The notes: generated from the letters alone by a model not told the origin. A stretch of 64,000 nucleotides of DNA from a virus (IMGVR_UViG_3300006204_000424:22382-86381); one strand, 5' to 3'. Shown: positions 18,486-44,358, counted from the stretch's first letter. Numbers and translations: made by a program.

Positions 18486-18527
18486 ATGACTTATATTTTA
18501 GGTAGAAAAATTACCCCCCCCCCCTAA
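18486..18527 (+). promoter_or_regulatory. Leader ORF A (MTYILGRKITPPP*) containing an 11-nt poly-C tract (18514-18524) upstream of fibre gene A
   Basis: AAGGAGG RBS, ATG, ...ATT ACC CCC CCC CCC TAA. One of three paralogous cassettes (see findings). Confidence 0.5.
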
Positions 18528-19384: not shown

Positions 19385-19726
19385 ATGACGTATGCAATGA
19401 TTTTACAGAATAAAGTAATCGATGTACTGCCGAATCAGGAAACCGAACCATGGTGGCCGCCAGACCCAGCAGGGAATCCGGTTACGGCGGTGCTTTGCGA
19501 TGATACGGTCAAGAAAGGAATGGAATATGAACCAGAAACAGGTGAGTTTTCCGAATACATACCGCCAGAACCAGAACCAGAGCCAATCCCAGAACCGACA
19601 CAGCTTGACCGCATCGAAGCAGCAATCAGTCAATCAAATACATACCTTTCTCAAACTTACTCCGAAATTGAAAATAGAATTATCGACAACTACACAATGT
19701 CTTTGGTCGAAAACAATATCATCTAA
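19385..19726 (+). CDS. XkdW-like protein (paralog 1)
   Basis: PEPEPEPIPEPTQLDRIEAAISQSN motif shared with the ORFs at 23059 and 24750. Confidence 0.5.
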   Translation: MTYAMILQNKVIDVLPNQETEPWWPPDPAGNPVTAVLCDDTVKKGMEYEPETGEFSEYIPPEPEPEPIPEPTQLDRIEAAISQSNTYLSQTYSEIENRIIDNYTMSLVENNII

Positions 19727-22348: not shown

Positions 22349-22399
22349 ATGGAATATTTGTTAAATAAAACTACCCCCCCCCCCGAAAATTTGAACTAA
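22349..22399 (+). promoter_or_regulatory. Leader ORF B (MEYLLNKTTPPPENLN*) containing an 11-nt poly-C tract (22374-22384) upstream of fibre gene B
   Basis: AAAGGAG RBS plus ATG. Poly-C encodes PPP. Paralogous to leaders A and C. Confidence 0.5.
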
Positions 22400-24048: not shown

Positions 24049-24096
24049 ATGTATTTATTTGTTAGTAAAATCACCCCCCCCCCCCCGAAAATTTAA
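24049..24096 (+). promoter_or_regulatory. Leader ORF C (MYLFVSKITPPPPKI*) containing a 13-nt poly-C tract (24074-24086) upstream of fibre gene C
   Basis: GAGGAGG RBS plus ATG. Paralogous to leader B. Confidence 0.5.
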
Positions 24097-24749: not shown

Positions 24750-25052
24750 ATGTCTTTTATTTATGCACAAATTGATGAAAATAATATCTGCTGCGCTGTT
24801 TCTAATCTTTCTGGTGAAATATTCGATACACATTTAATCCCTATTCAAACATTCGACACAACCATGATTGGGAAGAAATTTTCAGATGGTCACTGGCTGG
24901 AAGTGCCAAAATCAGAAATGGGAGAAACCATAGCTCCTGAACCCACACAGCTTGACCGCATTGAAGCTGCCATAAATATGAAAAATAATGAAATTTCAGA
25001 AAGGGCAATTGATACATACACAAAGCAACTGTTGGAAAACGGTTTACTTTAA
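24750..25052 (+). CDS. XkdW-like protein (paralog 3)
   Basis: ETIAPEPTQLDRIEAAINMKNNE motif, nearly identical to the one at 19385. GGAGGTG RBS at ATG 24750. Confidence 0.5.
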   Translation: MSFIYAQIDENNICCAVSNLSGEIFDTHLIPIQTFDTTMIGKKFSDGHWLEVPKSEMGETIAPEPTQLDRIEAAINMKNNEISERAIDTYTKQLLENGLL

Positions 25053-26131: not shown

Positions 26132-26350
26132 ATGCGTCCAAAAAAGAAGTTATCCAAGATGAAAGGGGATGTTTATATGCGGACTATAACTGATTCTCAT
26201 ATGAATGATTTGAAAAAACGCGCATCTCAAAGACGCATCCTTTTCCCCAATCAAAAAAACTCAGAAGATGTAAAACTAGAAAATGATTTTTTTGAAGATG
26301 TAAAGAATAAAATGTATGAACAAATTTCGGAGGATGAAAAATGGAATTGA
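26132..26350 (+). CDS. Putative antitoxin partner of the MazF-like toxin
   Basis: 72-aa ORF overlapping the toxin start by 10 nt. Basic N-terminus. Confidence 0.4.
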   Translation: MRPKKKLSKMKGDVYMRTITDSHMNDLKKRASQRRILFPNQKNSEDVKLENDFFEDVKNKMYEQISEDEKWN

Positions 26351-26760
26351 AACGTGGGGAAATATATTATATAACTTTTCCATATACCCTTGATCCAAAG
26401 TATCCTAATGGTAAACCTAAATTTGTATTGGTATTACAAGAGGGCGAATACTTTGCAAAATATAACACGGTTGAAATAATGCTTATTACTTCTGATAAGC
26501 AATATAAGCCTAGAGAAAAATATGCTACTGATGTAGAAATAGAAGTGGGGACAACAAAACTTAAAGATAAATCATGGGTTCTTTGTTCACAACCTTATCC
26601 AATTGAAAAGAAGTTATTTGAGCAATCTGGCGTATGGTGTGCGGGGATGTTATCTGCCGAAAAAATGGATGAAATCGATGAAGCTACTTATATTGGATTA
26701 TGTATGGGGTTACAGCATGAACTTGCACTTGAACCAGCAGATGAAGATTCTGATAATTGA
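26341..26760 (+). CDS. MazF/PemK-family mRNA interferase toxin
   Basis: RGEIYYITFPY...GKPKFVLVLQEG...VEIMLITSDKQ...KSWVLCSQPYPIEKK matches the MazF/PemK fold motif order. Confidence 0.65.
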   Translation: MELKRGEIYYITFPYTLDPKYPNGKPKFVLVLQEGEYFAKYNTVEIMLITSDKQYKPREKYATDVEIEVGTTKLKDKSWVLCSQPYPIEKKLFEQSGVWCAGMLSAEKMDEIDEATYIGLCMGLQHELALEPADEDSDN

Positions 26761-26804
26761 ATAGTTATTTTCTGGCACTATTATCGATTATAATTAAAAA
26801 TTTT

Positions 26805-26834
26805 AGGGATGCTTTTGAGCGTCCCTATTTTTTT
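26805..26834 (+). terminator. Rho-independent terminator after the MazEF-like pair
   Basis: AGGGATGC ttttga GCGTCCCT followed by ATTTTTTT. Confidence 0.55.
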
Positions 26835-27171
26835 GACTTTACGTGTCACCAAAAAAATGGACAGTGAGCCTTCATGGCTGGCTCAGGTCTATGGCGAACC
26901 GGAGATTATGTACGAAAGACATCTGCCGGAATAAGCAGGTGAAACCAGGCAGCGGTCTTGACACATTTATTTACAGCTGATATATATAACGAGGGCGAAA
27001 AGCTGATTCTCAAGCCTTTCGCCCAATCGTATCATAGAATATCTTTATTTACAGACTTTTGCTCACAGATTCCTGTTTTTGGTTACGCCATATTTGAAAA
27101 CAAATGGGCGTTTAAAACATGCAAAACTCGCCTCCTCCCAATATCAGGTCATCCTTGTTTCTGCCAGTAAT

Positions 27172-28170
27172 TTACAAGAAATTAAAATAACTGCCAAGAC
27201 CCTTTTCAAGAGCTCTTTTATAAGCAACTCCAGCAACGGCGATATCCATAGCCCCTGTACCAATAGGAATACATATAATTCGTTCTTTGCTAACATTTTG
27301 TACAGATTTCTTGTTAGTTGCAATTTCACCTATTGTAGCATAGATATTTTCTTCATGAATTTTTTCATCTTCAACTACATCATGCAGGGCTCCACGATGT
27401 AGGCATTGACCAATATGATCAACAATAATTCTATCAGCATTTAGCAGTAAAGTATCTTCGCATTCCGTATAAGAACCCATAGGGAACACAATTTGTCCTG
27501 GCTTGATCCAATCGTCTTTTATGAATTTATCTTTGGATTGTGTGAAAGCAACAACAACATCGCCAACTGCCGCATCTTCCGGATTGTCGCAAATAATAAT
27601 TTCACCTTTTACAACGTTTTTCATATTTTCCTTAAATTTTGCAGCTGCCGCCGGAAGCATATCATAAACCCTCAATTCTTTGATATCAAATAACTCCGCA
27701 AATGCCAATGTCTGCATATGTCCTTGCATACCAGCTCCATATAAGCCAATTTTAATTTCTTTCCCGGTATACAAATATTTTGTCGCAACAGCAGCTTGCG
27801 CACCTGTGCGCAGATTTGTAATCAAAGCACCATCCATCATACATTTAAATTCGCCAATCGAAGGGTCAATCAGCATAATTGCAGCCGTGACATAAGGTAA
27901 TCCCATTTCACGACGTTTTCCAAGAAATCCTCCAGCCCATTTAATACCAGCAATATCCAGCCATCCGACATAAGCAGGCATAGCATTCATAAAACCTTCG
28001 TAAGCAGGATAAGATGCGGTTTCTCCCAAATCAAGATTAACTTTCGTAGGATTAATTGTCGTCCCTTCACCAAACCCGATGAACGTTTTGTCAACAATCT
28101 CAACGATATCTTTCATAGTGAGAAGATTATCAATATCAGATTGTTTCAGTAGCATAGTCTTATGTTCCAT
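27172..28170 (-). CDS. Ornithine cyclodeaminase / mu-crystallin family enzyme
   Basis: 332 aa. N-terminal LLKQSDIDNLLTMKDIVEIVDKTF. Rossmann motif IGLYGAGMQG. Confidence 0.65.
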   Translation of the reverse strand: MEHKTMLLKQSDIDNLLTMKDIVEIVDKTFIGFGEGTTINPTKVNLDLGETASYPAYEGFMNAMPAYVGWLDIAGIKWAGGFLGKRREMGLPYVTAAIMLIDPSIGEFKCMMDGALITNLRTGAQAAVATKYLYTGKEIKIGLYGAGMQGHMQTLAFAELFDIKELRVYDMLPAAAAKFKENMKNVVKGEIIICDNPEDAAVGDVVVAFTQSKDKFIKDDWIKPGQIVFPMGSYTECEDTLLLNADRIIVDHIGQCLHRGALHDVVEDEKIHEENIYATIGEIATNKKSVQNVSKERIICIPIGTGAMDIAVAGVAYKRALEKGLGSYFNFL

Positions 28171-28194
28171 GATTCATTTCCCCTTTCTTTTTAA

Positions 28195-29667
28195 TCAGTC
28201 ATTATTTTTGTTTATAGTAGAAACTGAACCTCTATTGCTCAGTTTGCTAACAAGAAGGAGTGCAACTACAGATGCTATAAGTCCCCAGATTACATAAGGC
28301 ACAGGAGATTTAAGCAAGGTAGCAATGATACAGCCCAAAATTCCGCATATCATACTTGCTCGTATACCCGCAGTAGTCACCATATTTCTTTTGCGAAGAA
28401 AGTATCCCAGATACATAGGCGCAGCCAAACCAGCAGCAGAATATGCGTAGGTTGTTACAATCGCATTCAATACGTTTGGATAAATGATAGAAAGCGTTGC
28501 CGCAAGGATTAACACAATAACCGAAAGAATCCTTGAAATCTTTAGCAATTTTTTGCTGTCAGTTTCCGGATGTGCCGACTGATAAATATCATGTGTCAGA
28601 TTTACCACAACAGACTGTGCTGCTGAACTTATGGTAGACATAATTGTTGCTACTATCAGACCAGCAAACAGTGCAACCAAAAATATTGGCATCTGCGTCA
28701 ATAGCCATCCAGTGGCATTTTCTCCTTCTATATTAGGGTTCATAGCATGTATTCCCAGACCTAATATACAAGACCAAGCTAATCCTATCAGGATAATTAT
28801 GGCGCTGATGATCAAACTTCTATTAACTTGTTTTTTGTTCTCAATTGCACAAATCCTCTGAAAATACATCTGGTTTGTCATGCCGCCAGGTAATGTAGAA
28901 AAGATCCATAAAAATACAGTGCCCCAACCAACACTAATAAAACCTCTTGGCATTTCAATGATTTCAGATGGGACTCTAACTTTGATATCTGCCACAGAGC
29001 CGCCATTCCGCATAACGAAAGCAAAAGTAACCAGCATGATTACAAGCATAAAACAGCCAAAGAAAAAGTCTGTCCATGCTACTGTTTTCATGCCAGAAGG
29101 CATGACAAAGAGAATGCTGCATATCGCCATTGCAATAATTAGAAATTCCAAAGGCAATCCAGTGATTTCCCGATAGATTTTTGCAAAAGCGGTCATCTGG
29201 GAAATAAGCCAGCCAAATGGCACCAATATAGTTAAGATAGATGCACATACTTTTACAAAACGGTCATTGTTACTAAAACTGCCTACCATATCAGGAATTG
29301 TTTCAAATTCATTTTCTCGTATCCAATTACCAATGAGCATATAAATCAAAAATGGCAAAACAGCAAAAACAGCATAGATTATCATGGCTAAACCATTGTT
29401 ATACGCATTGCCAACCTGCCCGACAAGCACGCCTCCGCCCATTGCACTGGCAAACTGAGTGCCTATTATCACATAAAGCGGCAGGCTTCGACCACCAATA
29501 TTCCAATCTTCTGTTGCATCAGCTTTCTTCTTATTTCGCTTATTGATCACAGTTGTGAGGAAAAAACTCAAAGCCAAAATTGTAATTGTTGCTATAACTG
29601 TAATAATCGCTTTTGTCGTCATTTTTTTCTCCTTTCTGTTGAAATAACAATTCTCAGGATTCATCAT
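28195..29667 (-). CDS. Sodium:solute symporter family transporter
   Basis: 490 aa, multi-pass membrane protein. GTQFASAMGGGVLVGQ region typical of the SSS family. Confidence 0.65.
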   Translation of the reverse strand: MMNPENCYFNRKEKKMTTKAIITVIATITILALSFFLTTVINKRNKKKADATEDWNIGGRSLPLYVIIGTQFASAMGGGVLVGQVGNAYNNGLAMIIYAVFAVLPFLIYMLIGNWIRENEFETIPDMVGSFSNNDRFVKVCASILTILVPFGWLISQMTAFAKIYREITGLPLEFLIIAMAICSILFVMPSGMKTVAWTDFFFGCFMLVIMLVTFAFVMRNGGSVADIKVRVPSEIIEMPRGFISVGWGTVFLWIFSTLPGGMTNQMYFQRICAIENKKQVNRSLIISAIIILIGLAWSCILGLGIHAMNPNIEGENATGWLLTQMPIFLVALFAGLIVATIMSTISSAAQSVVVNLTHDIYQSAHPETDSKKLLKISRILSVIVLILAATLSIIYPNVLNAIVTTYAYSAAGLAAPMYLGYFLRKRNMVTTAGIRASMICGILGCIIATLLKSPVPYVIWGLIASVVALLLVSKLSNRGSVSTINKNND

Positions 29668-29682
29668 ATATATGATGAATCC

Positions 29683-29712
29683 ATCATAATCGATTATCGA
29701 TTATTTGTCAAT
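29683..29712 (-). promoter_or_regulatory. Promoter of the transporter/OCD operon with embedded direct repeats
   Basis: On the minus strand: TTGACA - 17 nt (aataATCGATaATCGAT) - TATGAT. A 16-bp perfect palindrome CATCATATATATGATG spans the start codons at 29662-29677. Confidence 0.45.
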
Positions 29713-29746
29713 AGATTGATTTTCATACAACTCATATTTATCATTA

Positions 29747-29775
29747 TTGACAAATGTTCTCAAAAAATGTAAAAT
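29747..29775 (+). promoter_or_regulatory. Divergent plus-strand promoter, probably for gntR with a long leader
   Basis: TTGACA - 17 nt - TAAAAT. Confidence 0.4.
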
Positions 29776-30114
29776 ATTTTCGTCAATATATACCCAATGT
29801 AGATTAAATGAAAAAAATCAAAAGCGGAAAAATGGAAGAAATAGGAATATATGTATTATTTGTACTGACACTGACAAAAGAAACGAATAAGTGAAATGAC
29901 ATATGATTCATTAGTTAAATTTCTGGGTTTTTAAGAAATAAAAAATACTATCTATAATAAATAAAAATATTATGAAGTAAAACTTCATTTATGTGTCTAT
30001 ATGTCGAAATTACAATATATGATTTTTTCGTTGTAATTTAACGTCAATGTTTCGCTATTTGCTCCTGGCTTGTATACATAACTTCTGTTCAAAAAGGAGG
30101 ATACACAGTAGATT

Positions 30115-30762
30115 ATGAAAGCAATTACTTTAAAGCAACAAATTTACCAGATACTAAAAAAACGTATTTTAGAGGGAGAGTATGCTTTGGGCGGAAAACT
30201 AAATATTGATATAATCCGCAAAGAGTTCTCCGTCAGTCTTGCGCCAGTTCGCGAAGCCTTAACTCTTTTAGTTAAAGACAATCTGGTTGTAATGAATCCA
30301 AATACCGGTGTTCGGGTAATTGATTTTGATCCGAAAGCATATTATGAATTAACAGATGCAGTTAATGGATTATTGCTGGGTGCTTATGAAATCTGTTGTC
30401 GACGTAACAAAAAACAAATACTTCTGGAACATCTTTCACTACGACTTGAAAAGTTTTTAGAAAGTGTAGCTTCTGGCACCGACCGTGAAAAATTTTATGC
30501 CATTCTATTGTTTGATCGTTGCTTTGTTACTGCTACAGAAAATAATATGTATATTGACATTTTTGATAATAGGTTAGACTATTTATATCTGGCATATAGA
30601 TATAACCATCAAAATCGGTCTATTGACTGGGAGCAAGCAATTCGGCGCAATAAAATCTTGCTAGAAGCTGTTCAGGCCGATAAGATTGATATTGTAAGAG
30701 ACATTTTGTATGAAAGAATTAGTCCACATATTGCAGATGAGAAAAATGGACGGATTCCTTAA
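30115..30762 (+). CDS. GntR-family transcriptional regulator (FCD-type C-terminal domain)
   Basis: N-terminal winged HTH: IYQILKKRILEGEYALGGKLNIDIIRKEFSVSLAPVREALTLL. Confidence 0.7.
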   Translation: MKAITLKQQIYQILKKRILEGEYALGGKLNIDIIRKEFSVSLAPVREALTLLVKDNLVVMNPNTGVRVIDFDPKAYYELTDAVNGLLLGAYEICCRRNKKQILLEHLSLRLEKFLESVASGTDREKFYAILLFDRCFVTATENNMYIDIFDNRLDYLYLAYRYNHQNRSIDWEQAIRRNKILLEAVQADKIDIVRDILYERISPHIADEKNGRIP

Positions 30763-30952
30763 ATTTATAATTTATTATCGCAGATATATTTAATCTATAT
30801 AAATTAAAGACAGCTCGATGTTGGAGTGGCTTCTGACAGGAATCGGGGGCGGACATTTTCTTGGACTGGTTATGCCGCATACATATGCTAAAGCATTTTT
30901 TATCAACCCCCAGTATAACCGGGGTTTTGTCTTGCCTATTCGGCGCACAATC

Positions 30953-30987
30953 AAAAAAGTCATTGTATAAAATACAATGACTTTTGA
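30953..30987 (-). terminator. Hairpin terminator for the minus-strand 31006-31305 gene
   Basis: AAAAGTCATTGTAT aaa ATACAATGACTTTT, 14-bp perfect stem. T-run on the minus strand. Confidence 0.5.
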
Positions 30988-31005
30988 TTAGGTATGATAT
31001 TTATT

Positions 31006-31305
31006 CTATTCATTATTAGCTAATTGACCAATACACTCTTTAGCTTCTTCTATGGTCAAACCTTTTTCTTGGATTAAGGAAAGAAGTCCTTCAATTTCCT
31101 CATTCTTTTTTGCTATTTCGAGTTCTTTTCTTTCAGCTTTAAGTTCCTTCAAAAGTTGTTCTGTTTCTGCAATTTTCTTGATGTTCTCATCTAAGCGTTC
31201 TGCAATCGTTTTAGGACTTTTGTTCTTGCGGATTCCTCTCATATCATCAGTACCTCCAAATAGTATTATTATCAGTCTAAGACAAAAAACAAAATTTTTC
31301 AACAC
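31006..31305 (-). CDS. Small coiled-coil hypothetical protein
   Basis: Charged heptad-like sequence (...KKIAETEQLLKELKAERKELEIAKKNEE...). Probable start at the internal Met (MRGIRKNK). Confidence 0.3.
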   Translation of the reverse strand: MLKNFVFCLRLIIILFGGTDDMRGIRKNKSPKTIAERLDENIKKIAETEQLLKELKAERKELEIAKKNEEIEGLLSLIQEKGLTIEEAKECIGQLANNE

Positions 31306-31432
31306 ATATGATTATAAATTTTAACGCATAAAAATACCCCGCATTATTCTTGACACTACCAAGCTGATGGATAATGTTGCGTTTTCCTTCTGTCATTTGT
31401 ACCCGATGTATGGGTTTCTTCTGTTTTGCCAT
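31287..31432 (-). pseudogene. Truncated ribbon-helix-helix-like small ORF reading across the 17-bp repeat
   Basis: Strong RBS TAGGAGGATC - 10 nt - ATG. N-terminus MAKQKKPIHRVQMTEGKRNIIHQL is RHH-like. The frame degenerates right after the repeat. Confidence 0.3.
31326..31342. repeat. 17-bp direct repeat copy 1 (GCATAAAAATACCCCGC)
   Basis: Exact match to 35087-35103. Confidence 0.5.
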
Positions 31433-31647
31433 AATAAAAGATCCTCCTATGATTTAGATTTTACCATAGAAGAACCTCTTCAATTACATATTTACAGAAA
31501 AAGTTTCACACTGCCTCCATATGTTGAATTGACGCTTACCAAACTTTCGCCACATAGTATCATAGAAGCTCTCTATTTATAGACTTTTGCTCCCATGCCC
31601 AACTTTTGCTTACAGACTCGAAAATGTTGCAATGTCCCTTTTATTAG

Positions 31648-33615
31648 TTACTCACTTTTCTTTGACTGATTTTCAAGAAAATCATATCCATTTTTCGACA
31701 TTTGAAAAATCGTTCTATCTGAATTCCGTTGTACCACAAATCCGACACGAATTAACTCTTCCAATGCTGCTTCCATTTTCACTATTTCACGTTGGTCATT
31801 ACTATTATTCATAGGAATACTTCCAGCCTGTATTACTGTTCCAGATAAATCTTTAATTACAAGTATTTGACCTGTAGAATCTTTTCCAGCATTGCTCAGA
31901 ATAGAAAAAGCTGTGTCATTTATTTTTACAACATTTTTAGAAGTTATTTTTAAAACTTCAGTGATAAATCTATTTCTTTTTTCTTCCCAATTATTCCTGT
32001 ATTTTAAATTAAAAATCTTTTTCAGCTTATCATAAACTTGGTTTAATCTATCTTTGACCTCCATCTCCTCATTATCAAGCTTAATAGCCGCTATTTCATT
32101 TCTTACAACACCATTCATCATGTCAAAGTCAAAATGCGGAAGTAATATAGATGTAAAACTGGTTTTTAACGCCCATGCAGCACCCATCTCATTTAGGCTT
32201 ATGATACTATTATAATAATTTTCTGAATGAATAAAAAATACATATAGATCATATTCTAAAAACTGTTTTTTTAAATAATCAAAAATATTTTCATCATTTG
32301 GTATATTGTATCCTGGTAAAGAACTACAAAAAATTTGCTCATCCCATAGTCCCATGTCTTCAAAAAGTTCAACCAATAATTTTACATAGGGAGCATCCTT
32401 GGAAGAATGGCTTATAAATATTTTAGGGAACTTTGTTTTCATTTTGACTTCCTCCTTAATTTGTATAATATTCTTTTTAGTTTTTGTCGAATGGCATATT
32501 TCGTACATTGGACAATTTACATATCTATCTTTATAATTGTTTTCTTTTATGTCATATGTCAATCTCTGAAATTCTCTATCTCTATTTCGATGGGCTACCA
32601 AATATCTTTCTAGGTACTTTTTCACTGCTTCGCTTCTTTCATAAAAATACCATTCACTAATGTTAGTCGCAATATTCTTATCATAAACATATAGCGATAA
32701 GCCTCTTGCAATCCCTTCTTTCACTCTATCATCTTTATACCAAATGGAAGGGCAATCTAAAATATCTTTTATATAGTCATAATTATTTTTAATAAAAGTT
32801 TGATCTCTCCAAATATTCGTTAATGCCCATTTTTTAGGTTGCAAATCAAGATTATCTATAAAATCATTTACACTACAATCCAAATTCAAATCTCTCACAC
32901 TAAAACTCTTTTGTAAATTAAAAGTTGTCATTGCAAATTTCTGCACATTGATATTATCATGACGTAAAAGGTCTGAAAATATTTCTTTTTTAAAAGATGA
33001 TGCCGGGTTTTTAATACAATTGCGATTTATCATATTATATATTGTCGCAAGGAAACATAATTCAGTTGCATCATTATTATTTATTATTTTATCAATTTGT
33101 TTTTTGCTCAGACGTTCGATTGCACCTTTAGCAGAATTTTTAGGGGAAAAAAATTTAGCTAATTCAATTTTAGACTTTGTAAGTTTGCAATCTGCATTAG
33201 ACATCTTGTCCAAATACTTACCATTTTCTTGATTTCTAAAAAAAATCTCTGAAGCCATCAACATTTGATTATATTTATCATTTTCGTAACGAAATGAATC
33301 TTCTGATAAATAATCTAAAGCTGGCAAATTTCTTGATACACATAAACGAAGTACACATCTTCTCACAACCTCATCATTATGCGTAAGCAAATTATCCAAT
33401 CTTTTATTTAAGAGTTCTTGGCATCGAACACAAAAGTATCTTCTCTTTTCTAAAATATCCAACATATGATGAAGACCATTTATAATTAAACGATTGTCAT
33501 CTGAATATAAATATGATATATATCTTTTAAAATCACACTTGGTTTTTCCTTCTCTAGGGAAAGCGCATACTCTCTCAGCATGGCAAAATTTGCTATTACC
33601 CAAAGTTAAATTCAC
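31648..33615 (-). CDS. TIR-domain protein with an approximately 390-aa alpha-helical N-terminal domain
   Basis: TIR hallmarks KIFISHSSKD (beta-A), central conserved region, and FIHSENYYNSIISLNEMGAAWAL (SxNYxxSxWCxxEl-like alpha-E). Confidence 0.6.
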   Translation of the reverse strand: MNLTLGNSKFCHAERVCAFPREGKTKCDFKRYISYLYSDDNRLIINGLHHMLDILEKRRYFCVRCQELLNKRLDNLLTHNDEVVRRCVLRLCVSRNLPALDYLSEDSFRYENDKYNQMLMASEIFFRNQENGKYLDKMSNADCKLTKSKIELAKFFSPKNSAKGAIERLSKKQIDKIINNNDATELCFLATIYNMINRNCIKNPASSFKKEIFSDLLRHDNINVQKFAMTTFNLQKSFSVRDLNLDCSVNDFIDNLDLQPKKWALTNIWRDQTFIKNNYDYIKDILDCPSIWYKDDRVKEGIARGLSLYVYDKNIATNISEWYFYERSEAVKKYLERYLVAHRNRDREFQRLTYDIKENNYKDRYVNCPMYEICHSTKTKKNIIQIKEEVKMKTKFPKIFISHSSKDAPYVKLLVELFEDMGLWDEQIFCSSLPGYNIPNDENIFDYLKKQFLEYDLYVFFIHSENYYNSIISLNEMGAAWALKTSFTSILLPHFDFDMMNGVVRNEIAAIKLDNEEMEVKDRLNQVYDKLKKIFNLKYRNNWEEKRNRFITEVLKITSKNVVKINDTAFSILSNAGKDSTGQILVIKDLSGTVIQAGSIPMNNSNDQREIVKMEAALEELIRVGFVVQRNSDRTIFQMSKNGYDFLENQSKKSE

Positions 33616-33898
33616 TCCTAGTATTCCAGTTCTAAAGTATTAGATTTTTGAAAAAATATCAATTTAAATATATTTTAAGCAATAAAATCTTACTCAACAA
33701 TATTTTACTTTCTTTATTATGTAAATTTTTCCAATATAATAATTTCTATACTAATCCAAATATCATATCTAAATTTCACACTTTTAAAATGAACATGCCA
33801 TACTAAGGATATTTATATCATTTTAACCTGATTTTCTACAGCTTATCAAACAGCTTTCACTGAAACATCATATTTCTTATAACTTTGATTGTCTTATT

Positions 33899-34690
33899 TC
33901 ATATTGTCAAAAATTTATCTATATCCAGCCATATTAATTTACCAATCTTTTTCCCATCACTATCTACTTGAAATATTCCGAAATATTTGCCCTTTTTATT
34001 TTTTTTATATATTTTTGTATAATGATTAACAAAATAATCAGCTGCTCCTATAGTTCCATTTGTACCACAGCCAAAAATAAGGTGAATTGTTTTTGGCTCT
34101 ATTTCTGAATTATTTTTATCTATAGTTATTTTAATTAAAATACCCCATCCTCTTCCTCCTTTAGAATATGGATAAAAAGTACCATCAATTAAAAAACCTT
34201 CATTTCCTTCATCCGATACTTCAATAAATTCATAATTTAATTTTTTTAAATTTTCGTCCCTTTTGTACTTATTCAAATGTTCATTCGTAACTATCCATTT
34301 AATATTCTTTAAATATAAATTAAAATAGTGATTTACATACTCGTTTGAAACTGGTCCCCCTATATGTATTTCATCATATAATACATTTTTTTCATTATTA
34401 AATAAAATGGTGACACCTATTTTATTTAATAAAAAACTTATATTATACATTAGATGTATTTCATCTAAAATTACGACATCACGTTTTCTATCCAGTATCT
34501 TACTTTTAAATTTCGGAATTGATACAAAACATTTTGGAGGATATGTTTTGAAGCATAATACTTTTTTTAGTATTCGAATTTTATTTTTTTCTTGTAAAAA
34601 ATGTACAAAATATACAAAAAACACAAAGTAGAGCAATTTTGTATATTTAATAAAGTTAATAAAAAAAGTTATTAAATCTAAAAAATCCAT
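33899..34690 (-). CDS. Membrane-anchored protein with a Gly-rich GCGTNGTIG motif (possible nucleotide-binding effector)
   Basis: N-terminal TM helix LLYFVFFVYFVHFL. C-terminal LIFGCGTNGTIGAADYF P-loop/Rossmann-like glycine motif. Confidence 0.4.
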   Translation of the reverse strand: MDFLDLITFFINFIKYTKLLYFVFFVYFVHFLQEKNKIRILKKVLCFKTYPPKCFVSIPKFKSKILDRKRDVVILDEIHLMYNISFLLNKIGVTILFNNEKNVLYDEIHIGGPVSNEYVNHYFNLYLKNIKWIVTNEHLNKYKRDENLKKLNYEFIEVSDEGNEGFLIDGTFYPYSKGGRGWGILIKITIDKNNSEIEPKTIHLIFGCGTNGTIGAADYFVNHYTKIYKKNKKGKYFGIFQVDSDGKKIGKLIWLDIDKFLTI

Positions 34691-35086
34691 AAAACTATTA
34701 CCTCATTGCCAAACGAATTAACACAATCAATTGAATCAATCTTAAATCTACCATCATCTTTCTAATAATCCTATATAATCCTCCTTGTAAAATTTTTCTA
34801 TTAATTCTACTATTTTTCTATGGCTAGGATATAAATCCGAATTATACTTCACACCTAATGCTACTGCTACCATTAAAATAATTATAAAAAAACTACAGCT
34901 CCGGATATTGCCACCATATTTTTATAATCTGTATTAATAATATCACCTTATTTCTAGTATATGTAGAATAAGAATTGTCACAACAAAATAAATCTAATAT
35001 TATAGACACTCTTATACTATCATGCCCTAAGACAAATTTCAACATTTTCCAACTAAAATATATTCTATCTTATTTTCATTTCTGAT

Positions 35087-35103
35087 GCATAAAAATACCC
35101 CGC
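35087..35103. repeat. 17-bp direct repeat copy 2 (GCATAAAAATACCCCGC), about 370 bp from the integrase gene end
   Basis: Exact match to 31326-31342. Confidence 0.5.
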
Positions 35104-35210
35104 CTCTCAGCAAAGTATTCTCTTCCCTATTAATAACTTTTCTACTGAAACACATCAAATTATTTAACTAGAAAAATCATCACATTAAGGCTCCTTATTC
35201 TCATTGGCAT

Positions 35211-35468
35211 AAATTGGTGTAAGTGTGGTGTAAATCAACCAAAACCATAGAAAAAGACGTGCTGGAAATCCAGTAAAATCAGGCATTGTTGAACTTTATT
35301 CTTTCTTTTCATACAACCTTTTCTTTTCTTGTTTCCAATATTTAATAAATGCTGATTTTCCTTGATATTTCGGCATTTTCTCGATTTTTTGATTTCATTA
35401 AGTGTAGCAAATTATGATCTATTTCAGTATAATTTGGTACAAGAATGGTGTAAATTTTGGTGTAAATC
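35211..35468. repeat. Arm-type-site-like GGTGTAAAT repeats next to the integrase
   Basis: GGTGTAAATC at 35227, GGTGTAAATT at 35447, GGTGTAAATC at 35459. Larger conserved blocks AATTGGTGTAAGTGTGGTGTAAATC and AATTTGGTACAAGAATGGTGTAAAT. Confidence 0.45.
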
Positions 35469-35476
35469 TATTTGCA

Positions 35477-36664
35477 TTAATTTGTATATTCACAAGTATT
35501 CAGTAATACATCTCTCATTGATTTCATCGCAACATCGCTTGACATATGTGTATAAATATCCAATGTTGTTTTAACATTCTTGTGACCCATAATATACTGT
35601 AAAGATTTTATATCAATTCCACGTTCAATCATCCTTGTACAAAATGTGTGTCGCATAGAATGAGGCGTTATGGCAGGGATTTTATCGTGATGAAATTGGT
35701 TATACAAATTAACAGCATCTGATATACTTTTGTTAAGCATACAATAAGTTACAATTTTTGATTTTTTGTGTGATTTTAGAAGAAATTTTGAATAGCCATC
35801 TATAATAATTTCAATAGGTGTTTCCTCATCTCTCCTTTTTATCAAATTCAAAAATGAAACATATGCTTTATCAGAAATATATATCTCTCGCTTTCCTGCT
35901 TCTGTTTTTAGTGTATCGATTCTGAGTGGTGTGTTAGCGACATTATTGCGAGAACACAGCTGATGGTTTATGCTTAGTTCCCTATTCTTCAAATCAATAT
36001 CATCTAATGTAAGACCCAAAAGTTCTCCAACGCGAATACCTGTTTCTAACATTATGACAAATATGTCATAATACCACTGTATCTTCTTTGTATTCTTCAC
36101 AAATTCCAAAAATTCTGTTTCTTGATTTTGTGATAAAATAGCTTTTTCTTTGTAATTTGAAGGCAAAAAATCCAACTTAATATCGCATGGGTTTTTACGT
36201 ATCCAATCATCTTGTAAAGCAATATTAAAACAAAGTTTCAAAACACAATGATAAAATTGAATTCTTTCTTTGTGGATACCTGCGTTGTATAAACTTAAGT
36301 AAAATTCTTTGATATGAGAAGATTTCACTTTATTTATTTTCATTTTTGCAATTGGATACTTGCTGATGACGTTGATACCATATCGCATTTTTTGTGTAGT
36401 AGATTGCTTCCATTTTTTATTGCTTTCAAAATATATTTTTAGTAACTCTAAAACAAACATATTTCCATTATTAATAGATAACCCATCATCAATATCTTTT
36501 TGAAGTTGTTTTTCCTTTACACGCAATTCTTTTAATGTCGGCGCATATATGGTATGCCTTTTACCATAGCCATCACTACATCGATACATATAGTTACCAT
36601 CTTTACGCTGGCTTTCTCCAGTGAACAAATTCCTGCCCTTATTATCTTTTCTCTTTTCAGCCAT
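35477..36664 (-). CDS. int: Tyrosine recombinase / phage integrase
   Basis: C-terminal catalytic region HSMRHTFCTRMIERGIDIKSLQYIMGHKNVKTTLDIYTHM (R..H..Y). N-terminal arm-binding-like GRNLFTGESQRKDGNYMYR. Start set at MAEKRK (GGAGAGAGGAG RBS); the track ORF extends to 36715. Confidence 0.85.
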   Translation of the reverse strand: MAEKRKDNKGRNLFTGESQRKDGNYMYRCSDGYGKRHTIYAPTLKELRVKEKQLQKDIDDGLSINNGNMFVLELLKIYFESNKKWKQSTTQKMRYGINVISKYPIAKMKINKVKSSHIKEFYLSLYNAGIHKERIQFYHCVLKLCFNIALQDDWIRKNPCDIKLDFLPSNYKEKAILSQNQETEFLEFVKNTKKIQWYYDIFVIMLETGIRVGELLGLTLDDIDLKNRELSINHQLCSRNNVANTPLRIDTLKTEAGKREIYISDKAYVSFLNLIKRRDEETPIEIIIDGYSKFLLKSHKKSKIVTYCMLNKSISDAVNLYNQFHHDKIPAITPHSMRHTFCTRMIERGIDIKSLQYIMGHKNVKTTLDIYTHMSSDVAMKSMRDVLLNTCEYTN

Positions 36665-36752
36665 ACAAATTCGCTCCTCTCTCCTGCCGAAAAGAGCCTT
36701 AATGTGATAAAACATATTTTACCACATCAAGGCTGCAATTACAAATTCCTCG

Positions 36753-36986
36753 TCAAATTACATTTATCTGATTTATCTCTTTTTCAAAAAGTTCTCTTTT
36801 CAGCAAAGCCTTGTTGCCATTCCAGAGAAGATAATCTGCCCTTGGGTTGCTTCTGATTATCTCCCGCAGTTTCTTTTCTCCGATATTAAAATATTCTGCC
36901 GCTTCAAATACTGTCAGCGCATACTTTTTCCAGATAGGAACTTTATTGTTTTCCAGTGCTTCCAATACCTCCTCTGTTCTCTCCAC
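36753..36986 (-). CDS. xis: Excisionase / HTH DNA-binding protein (Xis-like)
   Basis: 77 aa. [27 protein letters not shown]. Immediately upstream of int on the same strand. Confidence 0.6.
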
Positions 36987-37782
36987 TCAATTGGTCAACT
37001 TCCTCAAATTCAATTTGTGGTTGATGTTTCATTACCCTAAACTGACAGATGCGGTCATTTATATGGATTTCTGTATCTCTCAACGCATACGCTGGAAAAT
37101 GCCATTGATCGCCATTACCGCAATATGTCTCATCAATCAACCCCATATGATTTGTTTGAATCACACCAAAATTTTTAAATGTTGAACTCCTCGGAAGAAT
37201 ATGCGCTTCATAGCCCTTCGGCAGCTGCATAGCAACGCCAAGTGGGATCAACTTATATTCACCTGCTTTTAACGTAACATCCTCTGCTGCTCTCAAGTCA
37301 ATCCAATCGGATTTCCTATCAATGTATCTCAATTTTTCAATTTTATCTGTAAAATACTTAATTTTAATATCCATGTTTCTTTCTCCTTTGTTGTTTCTCT
37401 TATGAACTTCATTTATCTTCTTATCAGCAGTAAAATCTTCCGCGATTTGATATTTGGGTATAATCTTTGGCAAGCCACTTGTGTAGAATAGATTTTCCCA
37501 TGATTTTTTATTTTTGAATATCTCTTTTGACAAAGCACCTGCTGACTTTTTTCTTTTTAATTCAGTAATAGTGCCAATGGTTTCTATGTCTTCTTCTTTA
37601 GGGATTTGAACATTATGTGTTTCACAAATACGGCAATTATAGTACCAACGATATGCGTCATTTATTTCTTTTAATACTGGATAGTTTGTTCCTCTTATTC
37701 CTATCCAAAAATCATCGTCAATCAAAAATTTACCAGTTTGGCTATGATATTCACCTTGTATAAGATATAACATTTTTTGCAA
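36943..37782 (-). CDS. dut: dUTPase (trimeric type) with an approximately 135-aa N-terminal extension
   Basis: C-terminal half carries dUTPase motifs RSS.., [16 protein letters not shown] and RGGIGSTG. The N-terminal extension is unrecognised; an internal Met (MDIKIKYF) could be the real start. Confidence 0.65.
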
Positions 37783-37874
37783 ATGGCTTAATGTAACTGA
37801 TTTTCCTTCCCTGCAACATTTATCAATTATGTATTTTGCTAAGTTTAGCCCCTTTAAATTTTTGCTCCTTTGAT

Positions 37875-38723
37875 TTATCCGTAAATTTTATGTTCCTGAA
37901 CAACGAAAGCATTTAATACATTTTGCAGAAGTGCCAAACGTGTCAGCAAACCAACCCCGCCTGGAACTGGCGTACAAAAACCTGTTACTTGTTTCACATC
38001 ATCATAATCTACATCTCCGCACATCTTACCATTATTATCAAAGTTAATCCCTACATCAATAACAACAGCATTTGGCTTCACATATCTCCGATCGATAAAT
38101 TTTGCTTTTCCAACAGCAACAACCAGAATATCTGCCATTGAAGTAATCTGCTCTAAATTATTTGTCTTACTATGGCAAACTGTCACAGTTGCATCATTAT
38201 CCAGTATTGTTTTTGCTAACGGTTTCCCAACCAGTTCACTTCTTCCGACAATAACACAGTGATACCCTGCAAAGTTTTCGCCATTCGGAGAAAGGTAACT
38301 CATAATTCCCTGCGCTGTACAAGGAGTGTGCTTGCTGTCTTTTCTGAATCCATCAACATCTTTTTCTTTTGGAATCAGATTTATGATATTATCCCAAACA
38401 TTTTCAAGATGACATGGTAACGGCTTCTGAATAATCACTCCATGTACATCATTCATATTTGAAATTTTAGCAACTTCATCTGAAAATTCTGTTTCGGAAA
38501 TACCCTCTTCATATTTTAAGTAAATTGTCCTAATCCCAACCTCATCACAATCCGAGATTTTCCCTTTTATGTACCTGTTAGATGCAGGGTTGTCCCCTAC
38601 TTGAATAATCGCAAGTGTTGGAATTTTTCTGTCAGCATAGTTTTCACAAATATCTTTACATATAGTCTTTTCCTTTTCAACAAATTCCTTTATATCCTCT
38701 TTACTGCAAAATAAATGTGACAT
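37875..38723 (-). CDS. folD: Bifunctional methylene-THF dehydrogenase / methenyl-THF cyclohydrolase (FolD)
   Basis: 282 aa. [30 protein letters not shown] and GGVGLLT motifs. Confidence 0.8.
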
Positions 38724-40562: not shown

Positions 40563-41108
40563 TTACCCCTGCCTATACAAAATAATCTTTCCGTATTTCA
40601 AAGTTTTTTGAACGTCTATAACACGTTGGTTTGTACTGCCAGCATATGGATAATTTATATCTGCCAAATGTTTTACGAATTTTCCATCTACTAAAACATC
40701 TATATGGCGCAACAAATCATTTCCAATATTTCTTGTCACATTGAAGTCATCTGTCGTTACGCTTCCTTCGTGAATATATATTTGTTCAAAAGTATATCCC
40801 GAGTAAATCCAGATTGTTTTATTCGGAAATTGTGTTTTGATTTCTCTACACAAGTTATACACTGTCAAAATATTATCCGGATGTAATGGGTCGCCGCCAG
40901 AAATGGTAAGTCCGCTAATATAATCGTGTTTCATTTCGTTTATGATTTCTGTCTTAGCATCAATATCAAATTCTATTCCGCTACTTGGGTCGTGCGTTTG
41001 CGGGTTATGGCATCCATCGCAATGATTGCTACAACCAGAAACAAATAATACCACACGCAGCCCGCTGCCATTTCTCATATCATCATGAAGAATGTCATGA
41101 TAATTCAT
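40563..41108 (-). CDS. nrdG: Anaerobic ribonucleotide reductase activating protein (radical SAM), NrdG
   Basis: CSNHCDGC (CxxxCxxC) cluster. 181 aa. ATGA overlap with nrdD exon 2. Confidence 0.8.
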   Translation of the reverse strand: MNYHDILHDDMRNGSGLRVVLFVSGCSNHCDGCHNPQTHDPSSGIEFDIDAKTEIINEMKHDYISGLTISGGDPLHPDNILTVYNLCREIKTQFPNKTIWIYSGYTFEQIYIHEGSVTTDDFNVTRNIGNDLLRHIDVLVDGKFVKHLADINYPYAGSTNQRVIDVQKTLKYGKIILYRQG

Positions 41109-41572
41109 TACATGCTCACCCGCTCTTTCAGTTCTGCGTTTTTTGCAGCATTATATCTAGTGTCACCATGGACTCTCGTGTACCCAAGGTATCCGTTCAT
41201 CCTGTCAATTTTAGTGATCAAGCTGCTCCCGCATTTAGGGCAAACGTCCATTTCCAATTCTTCGTATCCGCATTCTTCACAGTATGCCAGAGAAAGGTTG
41301 ATACCTTCATAAAAACCCATATCCATAGCTCTTCTTACAAGTGTTCGGATTGCCTCTTTGTTATAATTTATAGGGTATCTACAATATTGGATTTTTCCGC
41401 CATTAAACAAATTCCAGAAACGCCCCTCAAGATTTTGTTTTTCAATCGGTGTAATATCTTCCCAAACACCACAATGAAAAGAGTTACTTACATATGGTCT
41501 ATCAGAAACACCTTCAATAATGCCATATTTTTTACGAAATTGCTCTATTTGCAATCCACATAAGGATTCTGC
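41108..41572 (-). CDS. nrdD: nrdD exon 2 (C-terminal glycyl-radical / Zn-ribbon part of anaerobic RNR)
   Basis: AESLCG..VSNSFH..CEECGYEELEMDVCPKCGS..RMNGYLGYTRV (glycyl-radical RxxGY) pattern. Frame open without ATG back to 41572. The preceding nucleotide is the intron omega-G. Confidence 0.6.
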   Translation of the reverse strand, partial: AESLCGLQIEQFRKKYGIIEGVSDRPYVSNSFHCGVWEDITPIEKQNLEGRFWNLFNGGKIQYCRYPINYNKEAIRTLVRRAMDMGFYEGINLSLAYCEECGYEELEMDVCPKCGSSLITKIDRMNGYLGYTRVHGDTRYNAAKNAELKERVSM

Positions 41573-42676
41573 CGTTATACCCTCGGTTTCCCGATATTTA
41601 TTAGGGGACTAGACTATATTATGTTCTCTATAATAGAGAACCCTCATCTTTCGATTTAAACTGGACTTAATCGGAACATTGCCAGTACCTAACATCTAGG
41701 CTCTACTCTACTCGCTTCGTGTAAATTTCACCTTATTCTATTATTTTTATAATAGTGCTTTCGATAGTCGTTAGAAATCATTGACTGTTTGCTATTTTCA
41801 TTATTTATAGATTTATACAGAAAACTTCAAATTTTTTGTTCCTGTAAATTTCAAATATTCTTCTTTAGATATACTTTTAAAATAATAACCTTTTCTTCCT
41901 TTTGTGTTTTTGTCAATCATTTTTGCAATATTATTTTTACTATAACCTTCAATGCATCTTGCGGCTTGGCTAATAGAACCATACATTGAAACAAAATTAT
42001 CATTATTTTTATATACAGATACTGGTTTAGATTGACTATCAGATATACCTATATCATTCTTAGCCAATTGATCATCAAATGCCTTTTTGGTATTTTCGCT
42101 TGTATTAGTCCAATATAGATTGCTTAAATCAAAATTTGATTTATCATTATCTTTATGCCCAACTATGTCATACTCATTTGGTTTTGGATTACTAATAAAA
42201 GCTTGAGCTAAAAGTCTATGTAATCTTCTACTCCTATTTTTTCCATCCTTACATGTTATTCCAATATAAACATATCCGTTATGTTTATTTATATTGAATT
42301 TTTTAGGATAAAACCAGTCTTCACCATAATCTTTATATACTTTTCCTGAAGGGGTAATATAATCAGTATTACTTTCTTCAATCAAAATCATTTTTTCTTG
42401 TATATCTTCTTTTTTTATTAAGTTTTTTAATAGTTTTCTTCTTGCTATGCAACATCACCTTCCATTTTGATTTTGTTTATAGCAAACAGTCAACAACTTA
42501 CGGTATTATCTCTATCCTATAAGTTAATATAGGACTTTAGAATCTCTTACCAGCCTGCTTCGTCTTTTTTATATTGCTATCTGCATCTGCCTTGAGCAAT
42601 AGTCTTATTCTGGCTATGACCGTTTAATGAGGTGTTTTCGACTTAATATCACTATTAAGCTGCCCACTTATGTTTA
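41573..42676 (-). mobile_element. Group I intron (about 1.1 kb) interrupting nrdD and carrying an HNH homing endonuclease ORF
   Basis: The 5' exon ends in U (cct|). The intron ends in G (taacG|gca). Exon frames join to give ...IYGTP|AESLCG... Internal free-standing HNH ORF. Confidence 0.55.
41813..42391 (-). CDS. HNH-family homing endonuclease (intron-encoded)
   Basis: NRSRRLHRLLAQAFISNP and GHKDNDKSN segments typical of phage HNH_3 / AP2-type homing endonucleases. Confidence 0.65.
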   Translation of the reverse strand: MILIEESNTDYITPSGKVYKDYGEDWFYPKKFNINKHNGYVYIGITCKDGKNRSRRLHRLLAQAFISNPKPNEYDIVGHKDNDKSNFDLSNLYWTNTSENTKKAFDDQLAKNDIGISDSQSKPVSVYKNNDNFVSMYGSISQAARCIEGYSKNNIAKMIDKNTKGRKGYYFKSISKEEYLKFTGTKNLKFSV

Positions 42677-44358
42677 GGCGTTCCATAAATTGCATAAAGA
42701 ATACCATCTTCTTCTTTAAATTCACTCACACGTTGATTAATATACTCCATAACCTCAATAGCAAACCCACCATCTTCTACAATTGATTTGCCATTATAAA
42801 GCTCTTGTAGCTCATTTAATGCTGTAATACCAAAGCTCATTGTCATAGGTTTCAAAATAGGTTTAATTTTATCATTTGGTTGCAAATAACCTCCATAAAA
42901 TCCACCCATACAATATGCCAAAGGATTAGTGGATGCTTTCTTTTCGCCAAGATATTCATAAGTCTTGATATGGAGTTTCCTGATCAATTCAAGATAAAAA
43001 TCAAGAACTTCATAAAAATCTTTATTCTCTTGCTTTGCTTTTGCCAAAATCATAGGTAAATGAAGGCTGATAGCACCAAGGTTAAAGCGGCCTTCAAAAA
43101 CAGGCATATCATTTTCATCCGCTGGATACATTCCTCCGCGCTCATACCATGGAGAAAGCGATGCCCTGCAGCCCATCAGCGATACAACCTTCCCATACTT
43201 TTTATACATAGAAGGGATATATCCTTCTCCAGTCAAAGAAAGAAAATCTGGATACATTGCTTTGCTGGAACAATCTATTGCTGTTTCAAACAGGCTTTCC
43301 AATTTCTTACCTTTTCCATGTAAATTTTCATCATACAAAAACGTCAGCTTAGGGAACAATACCACTTTTCTAAATCCATCTTTTCCTTGCCCATTCATTC
43401 TTGTTTTCAATACCACTTCGCTTGCCATTACACCCCATCTTGAGGTATCAATACCAAAACTAATGGAAGTAAATGGGTAATCTCCTCTGGAACTTCCGAC
43501 AGTGTTAAACCTCATCTCCCAAGATTGGAAGCCCTGCTCAAAATCACGTTTAACCTTCTTTGCCGCATATTCATCCGCTTTATCAAGGAAATGATTTTGT
43601 GATAACCCTTCTGTAAATCCGTCCGTAATCTCAAGATATTCTTTTTTATATTTTTCATAGGATTTTTCTGCATAAGGAGCAAGAAGGCTATCAACTCTTG
43701 GAATAGTAAAACCACCATATTGGCAGGCGGCTGCACTGATCGCAACATCACTGATCACATCAAATGCAACATCTAGTGTTTTAGGTTCGTTATACCACAC
43801 ATTACCCATCTCAAAACCACCGGCCAGCACCTCATCCATTCGGAACAAGCAGCAATTGACCGTATCGCGTCTTGCCGACATATCATGAATATAAATGTAT
43901 CCATCCCGACAAGCCTGAAGTTCTTCTGTATTTAAAAAGAATTTTTTATAAAGTTCCTTGTTTAACTCATTATAAATCAGGCTGCGCTGTGTCGGAACCA
44001 ATGCACTATCGCTGTTTGCATTATCTTTATCTCCAATGTACATAATAGACTGTGCTTTCTTATAAACTTCGTCCAGCATCTTTACAAAATCCTGTTTATA
44101 GTTTCTGTAATTACGGTAACTTGTCGCAACAGATGGATTTACTTTTTCCAATGCTGTTTCTACTGCATAATGCATTGTTGAAATTGGTACATCCTCTATT
44201 CCCAAATGTGTGATAATACTCAAAACATTTTCACAGATCTGTTCATCATCTTCTGTCGAAAGTCTAACCATTGCTCTCTCGGCAGATTTGCCCACAGCTA
44301 CAATAATTTTTTGCTTATTAAATTTTTCTTTTGTTCCATCCTTCTTTATTACGTTCAA
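42677..44358 (-). CDS. nrdD: nrdD exon 1 (anaerobic ribonucleoside-triphosphate reductase, N-terminal and core part)
   Basis: 561 codons to ...AIYGTP. The ORF-track frame runs 6 codons into the intron (KHKWAA*). Confidence 0.7.

Follow-up and report, generated by a model that had tools for sequence, protein, structure and literature searches.

The question raised by this locus is whether DNA enclosed by a perfect direct repeat beside an integrase gene is a mobile element in its own right. The stretch analysed, IMGVR_UViG_3300006204_000424:22382-86381 (64,000 nucleotides, hereafter the window), carries the same 17-bp sequence, GCATAAAAATACCCCGC, at 31326-31342 and 35087-35103. Between the two copies lie minus-strand open reading frames (ORFs) for a 655-aa protein with a TIR domain and for a 263-aa membrane protein, both present as first described. 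An initial annotation had read this cassette as a satellite island, integrated in tandem with the adjacent integrase-bearing element at the same attachment (att) site, and its two genes as a candidate Thoeris-like pair. Neither reading was supported. We consider another explanation, taken as a whole, to be probable: the cassette is cargo of a temperate phage, the TIR gene is a defence gene of the SpbK type, the 263-aa gene is independent of it, and the repeat is not an att site.

The att site of the integrase was found elsewhere. The enzyme is a tyrosine integrase with a Tn916-type N-terminal arm-binding domain (35477-36664, minus strand; Pfam Phage_integrase, E 3.9e-29; Integrase_DNA, E 1.9e-18; PHROG_1). 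Its longest ORF (35477-36715) has 412 aa, and it is called with 395 aa in public contigs. Next to it stands a gene for a Tn916-type excisionase (36753-36986, minus strand; Pfam Tn916-Xis, E 1.8e-21). Contigs carrying attL or attR were located via exact-protein look-ups. Similarity to the window ends at 35299 in the seven attL contigs (L023, L025-L028, L030 and L032), where an identical integrase is followed by bacterial genes for MltG/YceG, a methyltransferase, peptidase U32, MarR, a sigma factor and SpoIIAA/AB-like proteins. It ends at 35327 in the six attR contigs (L016-L018 and L043-L045), in which the cassette is followed by an 81-aa gene, HtrA, PhzF and MarR; these include the host isolate, Lachnospiraceae bacterium B68, which carries both attR and the cassette. 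The 29-bp sequence delimited by the two limits, TTCTTTCTTTTCATACAACCTTTTCTTTT (35299-35327), was found unaltered in each of the 15 contigs examined, whether attP, attL or attR. The arm-type repeats that had been noticed near copy 2 of the 17-mer are indeed there, on the cargo side of the core at 35216-35235 (GGTGTAAGT and GGTGTAAAT, plus strand; retained in attR contigs) and on the int side at 35447-35467 (two copies of GGTGTAAAT, plus strand). Pairs of GGTGTAAAT stand on both sides of the core in the window, as expected for attP. A core common to attP, attL and attR, arm sites on either side and adjacent int and xis genes make this the attP of a temperate phage. The 29-bp sequence is the true att core of the integrase, and is unrelated to the 17-mer.

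The 17-bp repeat nevertheless needed an explanation of its own. It is not a chance match, as two matches were obtained in none of 100 shuffles, and no other position in the window matches it with two mismatches or fewer. Copy 2 lies 374 bp from the integrase stop codon (35477), in agreement with the 370 bp or so first given. RNA folding revealed an intrinsic terminator downstream of int/attP (35085-35122, minus strand), of which copy 2 forms the 3′ half of the stem and the T-run. The hairpin (35091-35122, minus strand) has a folding free energy (dG) of −14.9 kcal/mol (z −4.0, equalled in 0 of 200 shuffles), contains GC pairs and is followed by a U-run on the transcribed strand; a simple consensus terminator scanner omitted it, as several pairs of its stem are G-U. 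Copy 1 (31326-31342) is an exact match to this 3′ half and T-run without the 5′ stem partner, and does not form a hairpin (dG −6.8 kcal/mol, z +0.55). Unrelated phages in IMG/VR contain this 17-mer too, and in at least L033 and L034 it is visibly placed at the end of a stem-loop, the position expected of a terminator tail.

The initial annotation had proposed to look for an empty site with a single copy of the repeat, and one such site was found. Contig L031 encodes an identical integrase, is 99% identical to the window over the int/attP region, and has a single repeat copy, GCAGGGTATTTTTATGC, without any cassette. Its order is terminator hairpin, promoter region, 78-aa gene, the whole 3.76-kb interval being absent. 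The hairpin is kept in L031 (dG −16.0), with a G to A change that converts a G-U pair to A-U. The interval is therefore truly polymorphic, present in one phage and absent from the other, and the repeat delimits both this polymorphism and a mosaic breakpoint. Most likely, the repeat marks an illegitimate-recombination junction and not an att site.

Where the cassette sits with respect to the phage could be read directly from the flanking genes. The far left of the window holds a tail module (tape measure, tail proteins and tail fibres in PHROGs), and to the right of int/xis are phage families for replication and nucleotide metabolism: dUTPase, FolD, a DNA methyltransferase, a ligase, an exonuclease V/Dda-like helicase, a 1311-aa DNA polymerase, a primase, a DnaB-like helicase, and NrdD with NrdG. 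Because tail genes stand on the left and replication and nucleotide genes to the right of int/xis, the window is one large temperate phage, of a mouse-gut Lachnospiraceae, in its excised or replicative (attP) arrangement. A Tn916-like integrative and conjugative element (ICE) was considered as the int-bearing element, and is ruled out by the same flanking tail and replication genes. In the single contig L054, the genes follow each other in the order HtrA, attR, cassette, 78-aa gene, GntR, sodium:solute symporter (SSF), ornithine cyclodeaminase (OCD), PemK, which places the cassette inside the prophage, at its attR end. The interval 31343-35086 is accessory cargo between the int/attP terminator and the next phage gene, and comes to lie at the attR end in the lysogen. 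That next gene, directly downstream of the cassette, is the 78-aa ORF (31006-31242, minus strand), also present among the gene calls of L014 and L053. GC content is 50% in the host flanks, 34% in the phage and 27.5% in the cassette, which accordingly looks foreign. The description of its TIR gene as one of defence type remains appropriate.

The left border of the cassette bears traces of insertion sequences (IS). The two genes had been described as the only ones between the repeat copies; both are present, but they share the interval with two small ORFs, a 52-nt repeat and two IS256-family remnants (31340-31485). The first remnant, 21 bp from the terminus of an IS256-family element (31340-31360, minus strand), overlaps repeat copy 1 by the three nucleotides GCG. 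Fused to it is the 5′ remnant of a second IS256-family element (31361-31485, minus strand; ORF 31277-31432), made of a leader and the first 24 codons (MAKQKKPIHRVQMTEGKRNIIHQL), which in tblastn was 67% identical to an annotated IS256-family transposase. Breaks at 31486-31488 occur in numerous metagenome contigs, which is what the start of a multi-copy sequence would produce. The breaks at 31486 and 35327 were considered as borders of a mobile 3.84-kb unit; this was rejected, as 35327 is the edge of the att core and 31486 the multi-copy IS start.

Isolate B68 has an IS256-family element inserted just downstream of the terminator of the 78-aa gene (L045 10776-10922, equivalent to window position 30916). 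It begins with the same 21-mer as the fragment adjoining repeat copy 1, and the C-terminus of its transposase is 90% identical to a Subdoligranulum Mutator-family ORF (Transposase_mut, E 3.3e-108) with a similar IS terminus. The 52-nt sequence is a direct repeat (85% identical) whose copies, 27016-27067 and 31544-31595, lie downstream of the OCD gene and of the TIR gene, respectively. It is not obviously an IS end, and no support was found for the two copies being the IS ends of a composite transposon.

How could such a structure have arisen? We propose that the cassette was acquired horizontally, from donor DNA that would have comprised a terminator, the cargo and a decayed IS256-family element. 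The donor would have recombined homologously with the recipient in the conserved int/attP/terminator region, and its other end would have been joined illegitimately at the 3-nt GCG microhomology inside the recipient terminator, whose 3′ half, being retained, would be the present repeat copy 1. Both the direction and the mechanism of this insertion are what we infer, and several observations weigh against the proposal or leave it incomplete. The empty site was seen in one short contig (L031, 2.4 kb), whose flank beyond the repeat is only 78% identical to the window; an insertion and a deletion would look the same in that contig; and a donor of the cassette was not found. Beside it stands a related scenario, in which a circular DNA, for instance a circle generated by an IS256-family element and carrying adjacent genes, entered by a Campbell-type single crossover at short homology, or in which L031 is a secondary deletion between pre-existing repeats. 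IS256-family elements form circles, IS debris does lie at the left border, and either event would yield the same present-day structure. Neither an intact transposase nor a circle junction was seen, however, and copy 1 is only the 3′ half of a hairpin, fused to an IS terminus via a 3-nt overlap, which fits a simple illegitimate join; we regard this scenario as doubtful. The satellite reading, in which a cis-mobilisable 3.76-kb integrative element with 17-bp att sites would have inserted next to the int-bearing element, in tandem, and borrowed the integrase of the latter in trans, is very improbable. A perfect direct repeat around the segment, a relative with one copy and no insert, and an integrase gene close by would all suit it. 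Yet the integrase uses a different, 29-bp core in 15 contigs, no third copy of the 17-mer exists in the 64 kb (the int-bearing element extends beyond the window), arm-type sites are not associated with copy 1, and the 17-mer is a generic terminator tail. In addition, the left end of the segment is IS debris, and the segment as a whole is internal to the phage, with attP on one side and more phage genes on the other.

The resulting picture, horizontal acquisition of cargo with an illegitimate join at one end, resembles the defence genes and morons found at prophage ends, and mosaic module exchange in general: accessory genes of low GC content stand between attP and the body of the phage, vary in presence from one close relative to another, and have IS debris at one border. 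Nothing fundamental differs; the indel junction here duplicates 17 bp of a terminator.

We then considered what the cargo encodes. SpbK (YddK), of the Bacillus subtilis element ICEBs1, is a single-gene abortive-infection system, a TIR NADase triggered by the SPbeta portal protein YonE (PMC8880864, PMC11984713, PMC12847820). It is self-sufficient as an NADase, and its N-terminal domain docks on the dodecameric SPbeta portal, which clusters the TIR domains (PMC12847820). The 655-aa protein (31648-33615, minus strand) proved to be related to it, and its TIR assignment was borne out by profile searches: the PADLOC spbK profile matched aa 319-555 with an E value of 4.7e-59 (198 bits, profile positions 63-306 of 308), and phmmer aligned SpbK (PDB 9phb) from aa 355 onwards (E 1.5e-24). 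The TIR domain spans aa ~385-555 (31951-32463, minus strand; PADLOC, PDB 9phb and residue alignment). It had been taken for the C-terminal third of the protein; the domain is there, but a tail of some 100 aa follows it. Of the 13 residues considered in the SpbK work, 11 are identical: S404, S405, I438, D441, I444, F445, L448, N475, E476, G478 and W481, equivalent to S121, S122, I155, D158, I161, F162, L165, N191, E192, G194 and W197 of SpbK, E476 standing for the catalytic glutamate E192. They cover the NAD site, the BE/filament interface (D158, N191, G194 and W197 of SpbK belong to the filament interface) and the sites of the SpbK mutants D158R, N191R, E192A, G194R and W197A (PMC12847820).

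The rest of the protein differs from SpbK. The order of a non-catalytic N-terminal domain, a linker and a TIR domain is the same, but in place of the 94-aa four-helix bundle of SpbK the 655-aa protein has an ARM/HEAT alpha-solenoid of ~330 aa (aa ~27-357; 32545-33537, minus strand), presumed to be the trigger sensor. It also has an extra C-terminal tail of ~95 aa (aa ~560-655; 31651-31938, minus strand), delimited from a BLASTP coverage map. The ARM/HEAT domain is rare, being found in four TIR proteins at 28-35% identity and in one protein, P0136, with a non-TIR C-terminus; P0136 was all that a word-indexed search with the N-terminal domain alone added, and this search missed known relatives. 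The occurrence of the domain on a non-TIR C-terminus fits its reading as a sensor module. The C-terminal ~95 aa, by contrast with the rare solenoid, are common to hundreds of ~375-390-aa TIR proteins with other N-termini (BLASTP); sub-threshold hits to MksE, Rio2_N and HTH_45 are the only hints to their fold, which is possibly winged-helix-like. This distribution of domains defines a modular family, with a variable sensor, an SpbK-type TIR and an optional tail. NCBIfam and PHROGs gave no match for the 655-aa protein.

Judged by its sequence, the 655-aa protein is a member of the SpbK family with a new ARM/HEAT N-terminal domain and an additional tail, and its gene a predicted NADase abortive-infection or exclusion gene. 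By analogy with SpbK, it would have NADase activity and probably excludes other phages by depleting NAD+. The solenoid would bind a multimeric protein of an incoming phage, the TIR domains would cluster head-to-tail and thereby form active sites, and NAD+ would be hydrolysed to ADP-ribose (ADPR) or cyclic ADPR (cADPR); the infected cell would be aborted and the lysogen population spared superinfection. Like SpbK, the protein is carried by a mobile element that would in this way protect its host from other phages, the carrier being an ICE of Bacillus for SpbK and a temperate phage of a Lachnospiraceae host here. Two points count against this reading. Pfam TIR_2 stays below its gathering score (17.7 against 28 bits), and the nature of the trigger is not transferable by homology, because the sensor of SpbK itself is a four-helix bundle. 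The combination of ARM repeats and a TIR domain also recalls SARM1, the animal ARM-SAM-TIR NADase, but the 655-aa protein is devoid of a SAM oligomerisation domain, and its ARM similarity is generic to alpha-solenoids, importins scoring higher.

The second gene (33899-34690, minus strand) encodes the 263-aa protein, which belongs to an uncharacterised family and combines a membrane helix at its N-terminus with an alpha/beta domain. Both the N-terminal anchor and the glycine-rich motif that had been noticed are real: helix and motif (FGCGTNGTIGA) are conserved across the family. An AlphaFold2 (AF2) model (mean pLDDT 90.2) shows a long N-terminal helix followed by the alpha/beta domain, and basic residues after the helix imply, by the positive-inside rule, a cytoplasmic location for the predicted soluble domain. 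No match was found in Pfam, PADLOC, PHROGs, NCBIfam or PDB sequences, no SIR2, SLOG, Macro or caspase-like domain was detected, and a fold search of BFVD with the model returned nothing significant. Homologues numbered 15 by indexed search and 183 representatives by exhaustive profile search. In a few relatives, the place of the membrane helix is taken by a CAP12/Pycsar-type TIR (6 of 149), by DUF4062 (one), a domain reported as an NADase in a 2026 preprint (DUF4062/NIR), or by a metallophosphatase (one). Because the soluble domain is joined to interchangeable effector modules in these relatives, a sensor or regulatory role on swappable effectors is suggested for it.

Is the 263-aa protein the partner of the TIR protein? 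The gene contexts argue otherwise. Among seven other contexts of the 263-aa family (L011, L012, L013, L046, L050, L051 and L052), none has a separate TIR gene beside the family member. Four (L011, L046, L050 and L051) are nonribosomal peptide synthetase (NRPS) operons, one homologue lies beside AbiH and one beside an AAA_21 ATPase; one TIR-fused relative follows a prophage holin and amidase. Conversely, no 263-like neighbour was seen at either of two loci encoding the closest TIR relatives. Co-conservation of the two genes, without which the initial annotation would have considered its reading refuted, was thus not borne out: none of the other contexts examined has the pair. Moreover, 10 of the 18 cassette contigs compared, most of which come from different samples, represent a second haplotype, in which 5 bp (33999-34003) are deleted from a T-run, read as an A-run on the coding strand. 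The deletion is a frameshift and shortens the 263-aa gene to 229 aa; the TIR gene of this haplotype does not have a single substitution. The 263-aa gene is most likely an independent cargo gene. Against this, the two genes are on the same strand, separated by 283 bp, and in this phage lineage one is always accompanied by the other, so that they could still be functionally coupled.

The NRPS operons with a 263-aa homologue (L011 6001-8284; L046 5272-7753; L050 58-3878) encode A, C, T and R domains, PP-binding proteins and a phosphopantetheinyl transferase (PPTase). In protein P0141, the homologue is fused to a multi-pass membrane protein that is its neighbour in L011, which suggests a two-protein membrane module in NRPS clusters.

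Functional coupling, if there were any, would most plainly take the form of two-gene signalling as in Thoeris (ThsB with ThsA; types I, II and IV): the TIR protein would make a signal derived from cADPR or ADPR, the cytoplasmic domain of the 263-aa protein would bind it, and its N-terminal helix would disrupt the membrane and kill the cell. The adjacency just described would fit, as a TIR gene beside a second gene is the layout of Thoeris, and ThsA of type II, too, is a membrane protein whose ligand-binding domain is cytoplasmic. The replacement of the helix by TIR, DUF4062 or metallophosphatase in the family is an architecture typical of ligand-gated effectors, and SpbK makes N1-cADPR, any receptor for which remains to be found (PMC12847820). 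The ThsB profiles of PADLOC, however, matched the 655-aa protein only weakly (E 7e-6 and 3e-4; 23.6 bits against 198 for spbK), the neighbour has none of the SIR2-SLOG, Macro or caspase-like domains, and the pair is not conserved, the seven family contexts, four of them NRPS clusters, and the two TIR-relative loci all being without it. A common haplotype with a frameshifted 263-aa gene and an unaltered TIR gene also counts against a two-gene system, and SpbK works alone (PMC12847820). We consider two-gene signalling unlikely, and the Thoeris-like classification is not supported. A particular version of it, that of a new Thoeris-like type in which the 263-family domain would sense ADPR or N1-cADPR from the neighbouring SpbK-type TIR, with interchangeable killers elsewhere, seems to us quite improbable; if it were true, the 263-aa protein would be the missing cADPR receptor discussed for SpbK. 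An SpbK-type TIR gene next to an independent cargo gene is the reading we retain.

Megablast of window positions 30000-38000 against plasmids and INPHARED phages gave zero matches. Scans of IMG/VR for the 17-mer, the attP core, the hairpin pattern and the IS end did not reveal any related phage carrying one of them, and integrase relatives in IMG/VR reach 33-36% identity only.

Other features of the window were recorded along the way. Upstream of the cassette, a block of bacterial-type cargo (26341-30762) holds a PemK/MazF-like toxin gene preceded by a small ORF, and genes for an ornithine cyclodeaminase-family protein, a sodium:solute symporter and a GntR regulator, all contiguous with the prophage in L054. 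The tail-fibre region contains three exact A-C11 homopolymer tracts on the plus strand (18513-18524, 22373-22384 and 24073-24084), 20-75 bp upstream of plus-strand ORF starts at 18581, 22404 and 24157. No such tract would be expected by chance. The sequences preceding the three tracts resemble each other over 33-41 nt, and the tracts could be phase-variable switches or recombination sites for tail-fibre/host-range cassettes. A 67-nt direct repeat (72% identical; 19589-19655 and 24936-25002) lies within ORFs of the same region, which is consistent with duplicated or exchangeable fibre modules. The gene for NrdD, the anaerobic ribonucleotide reductase (41108-44358), is interrupted in the window by a 192-aa ORF that separates a 567-aa piece from one of 148 aa; in the related prophage L023 (1-1921), NrdD contains an intein with a LAGLIDADG homing endonuclease. 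At the dUTPase locus (36943-37782, minus strand), the longest ORF has 279 aa with a TTG start, public contigs calling 276 aa; it has an N-terminal extension with a weak SocA/Panacea-like match and overlaps the xis gene by 44 bp.

A first consequence of these results is one of caution: a perfect 17-bp direct repeat beside an integrase gene can be a scar of recombination at a terminator and not an att site. Secondly, the 263-aa protein belongs to a family newly defined here, with 183 representatives, a confidently predicted fold and effector-swapping architectures, which occurs in NRPS clusters and in mobile elements. Finally, if the TIR protein works as proposed, the SpbK mechanism, in which TIR domains cluster on a phage multimer, would extend to a temperate phage of gut Lachnospiraceae. 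The sensor module of the SpbK TIR subfamily would then be exchangeable, and the association of an ARM/HEAT solenoid with an NADase TIR would echo that of SARM1.

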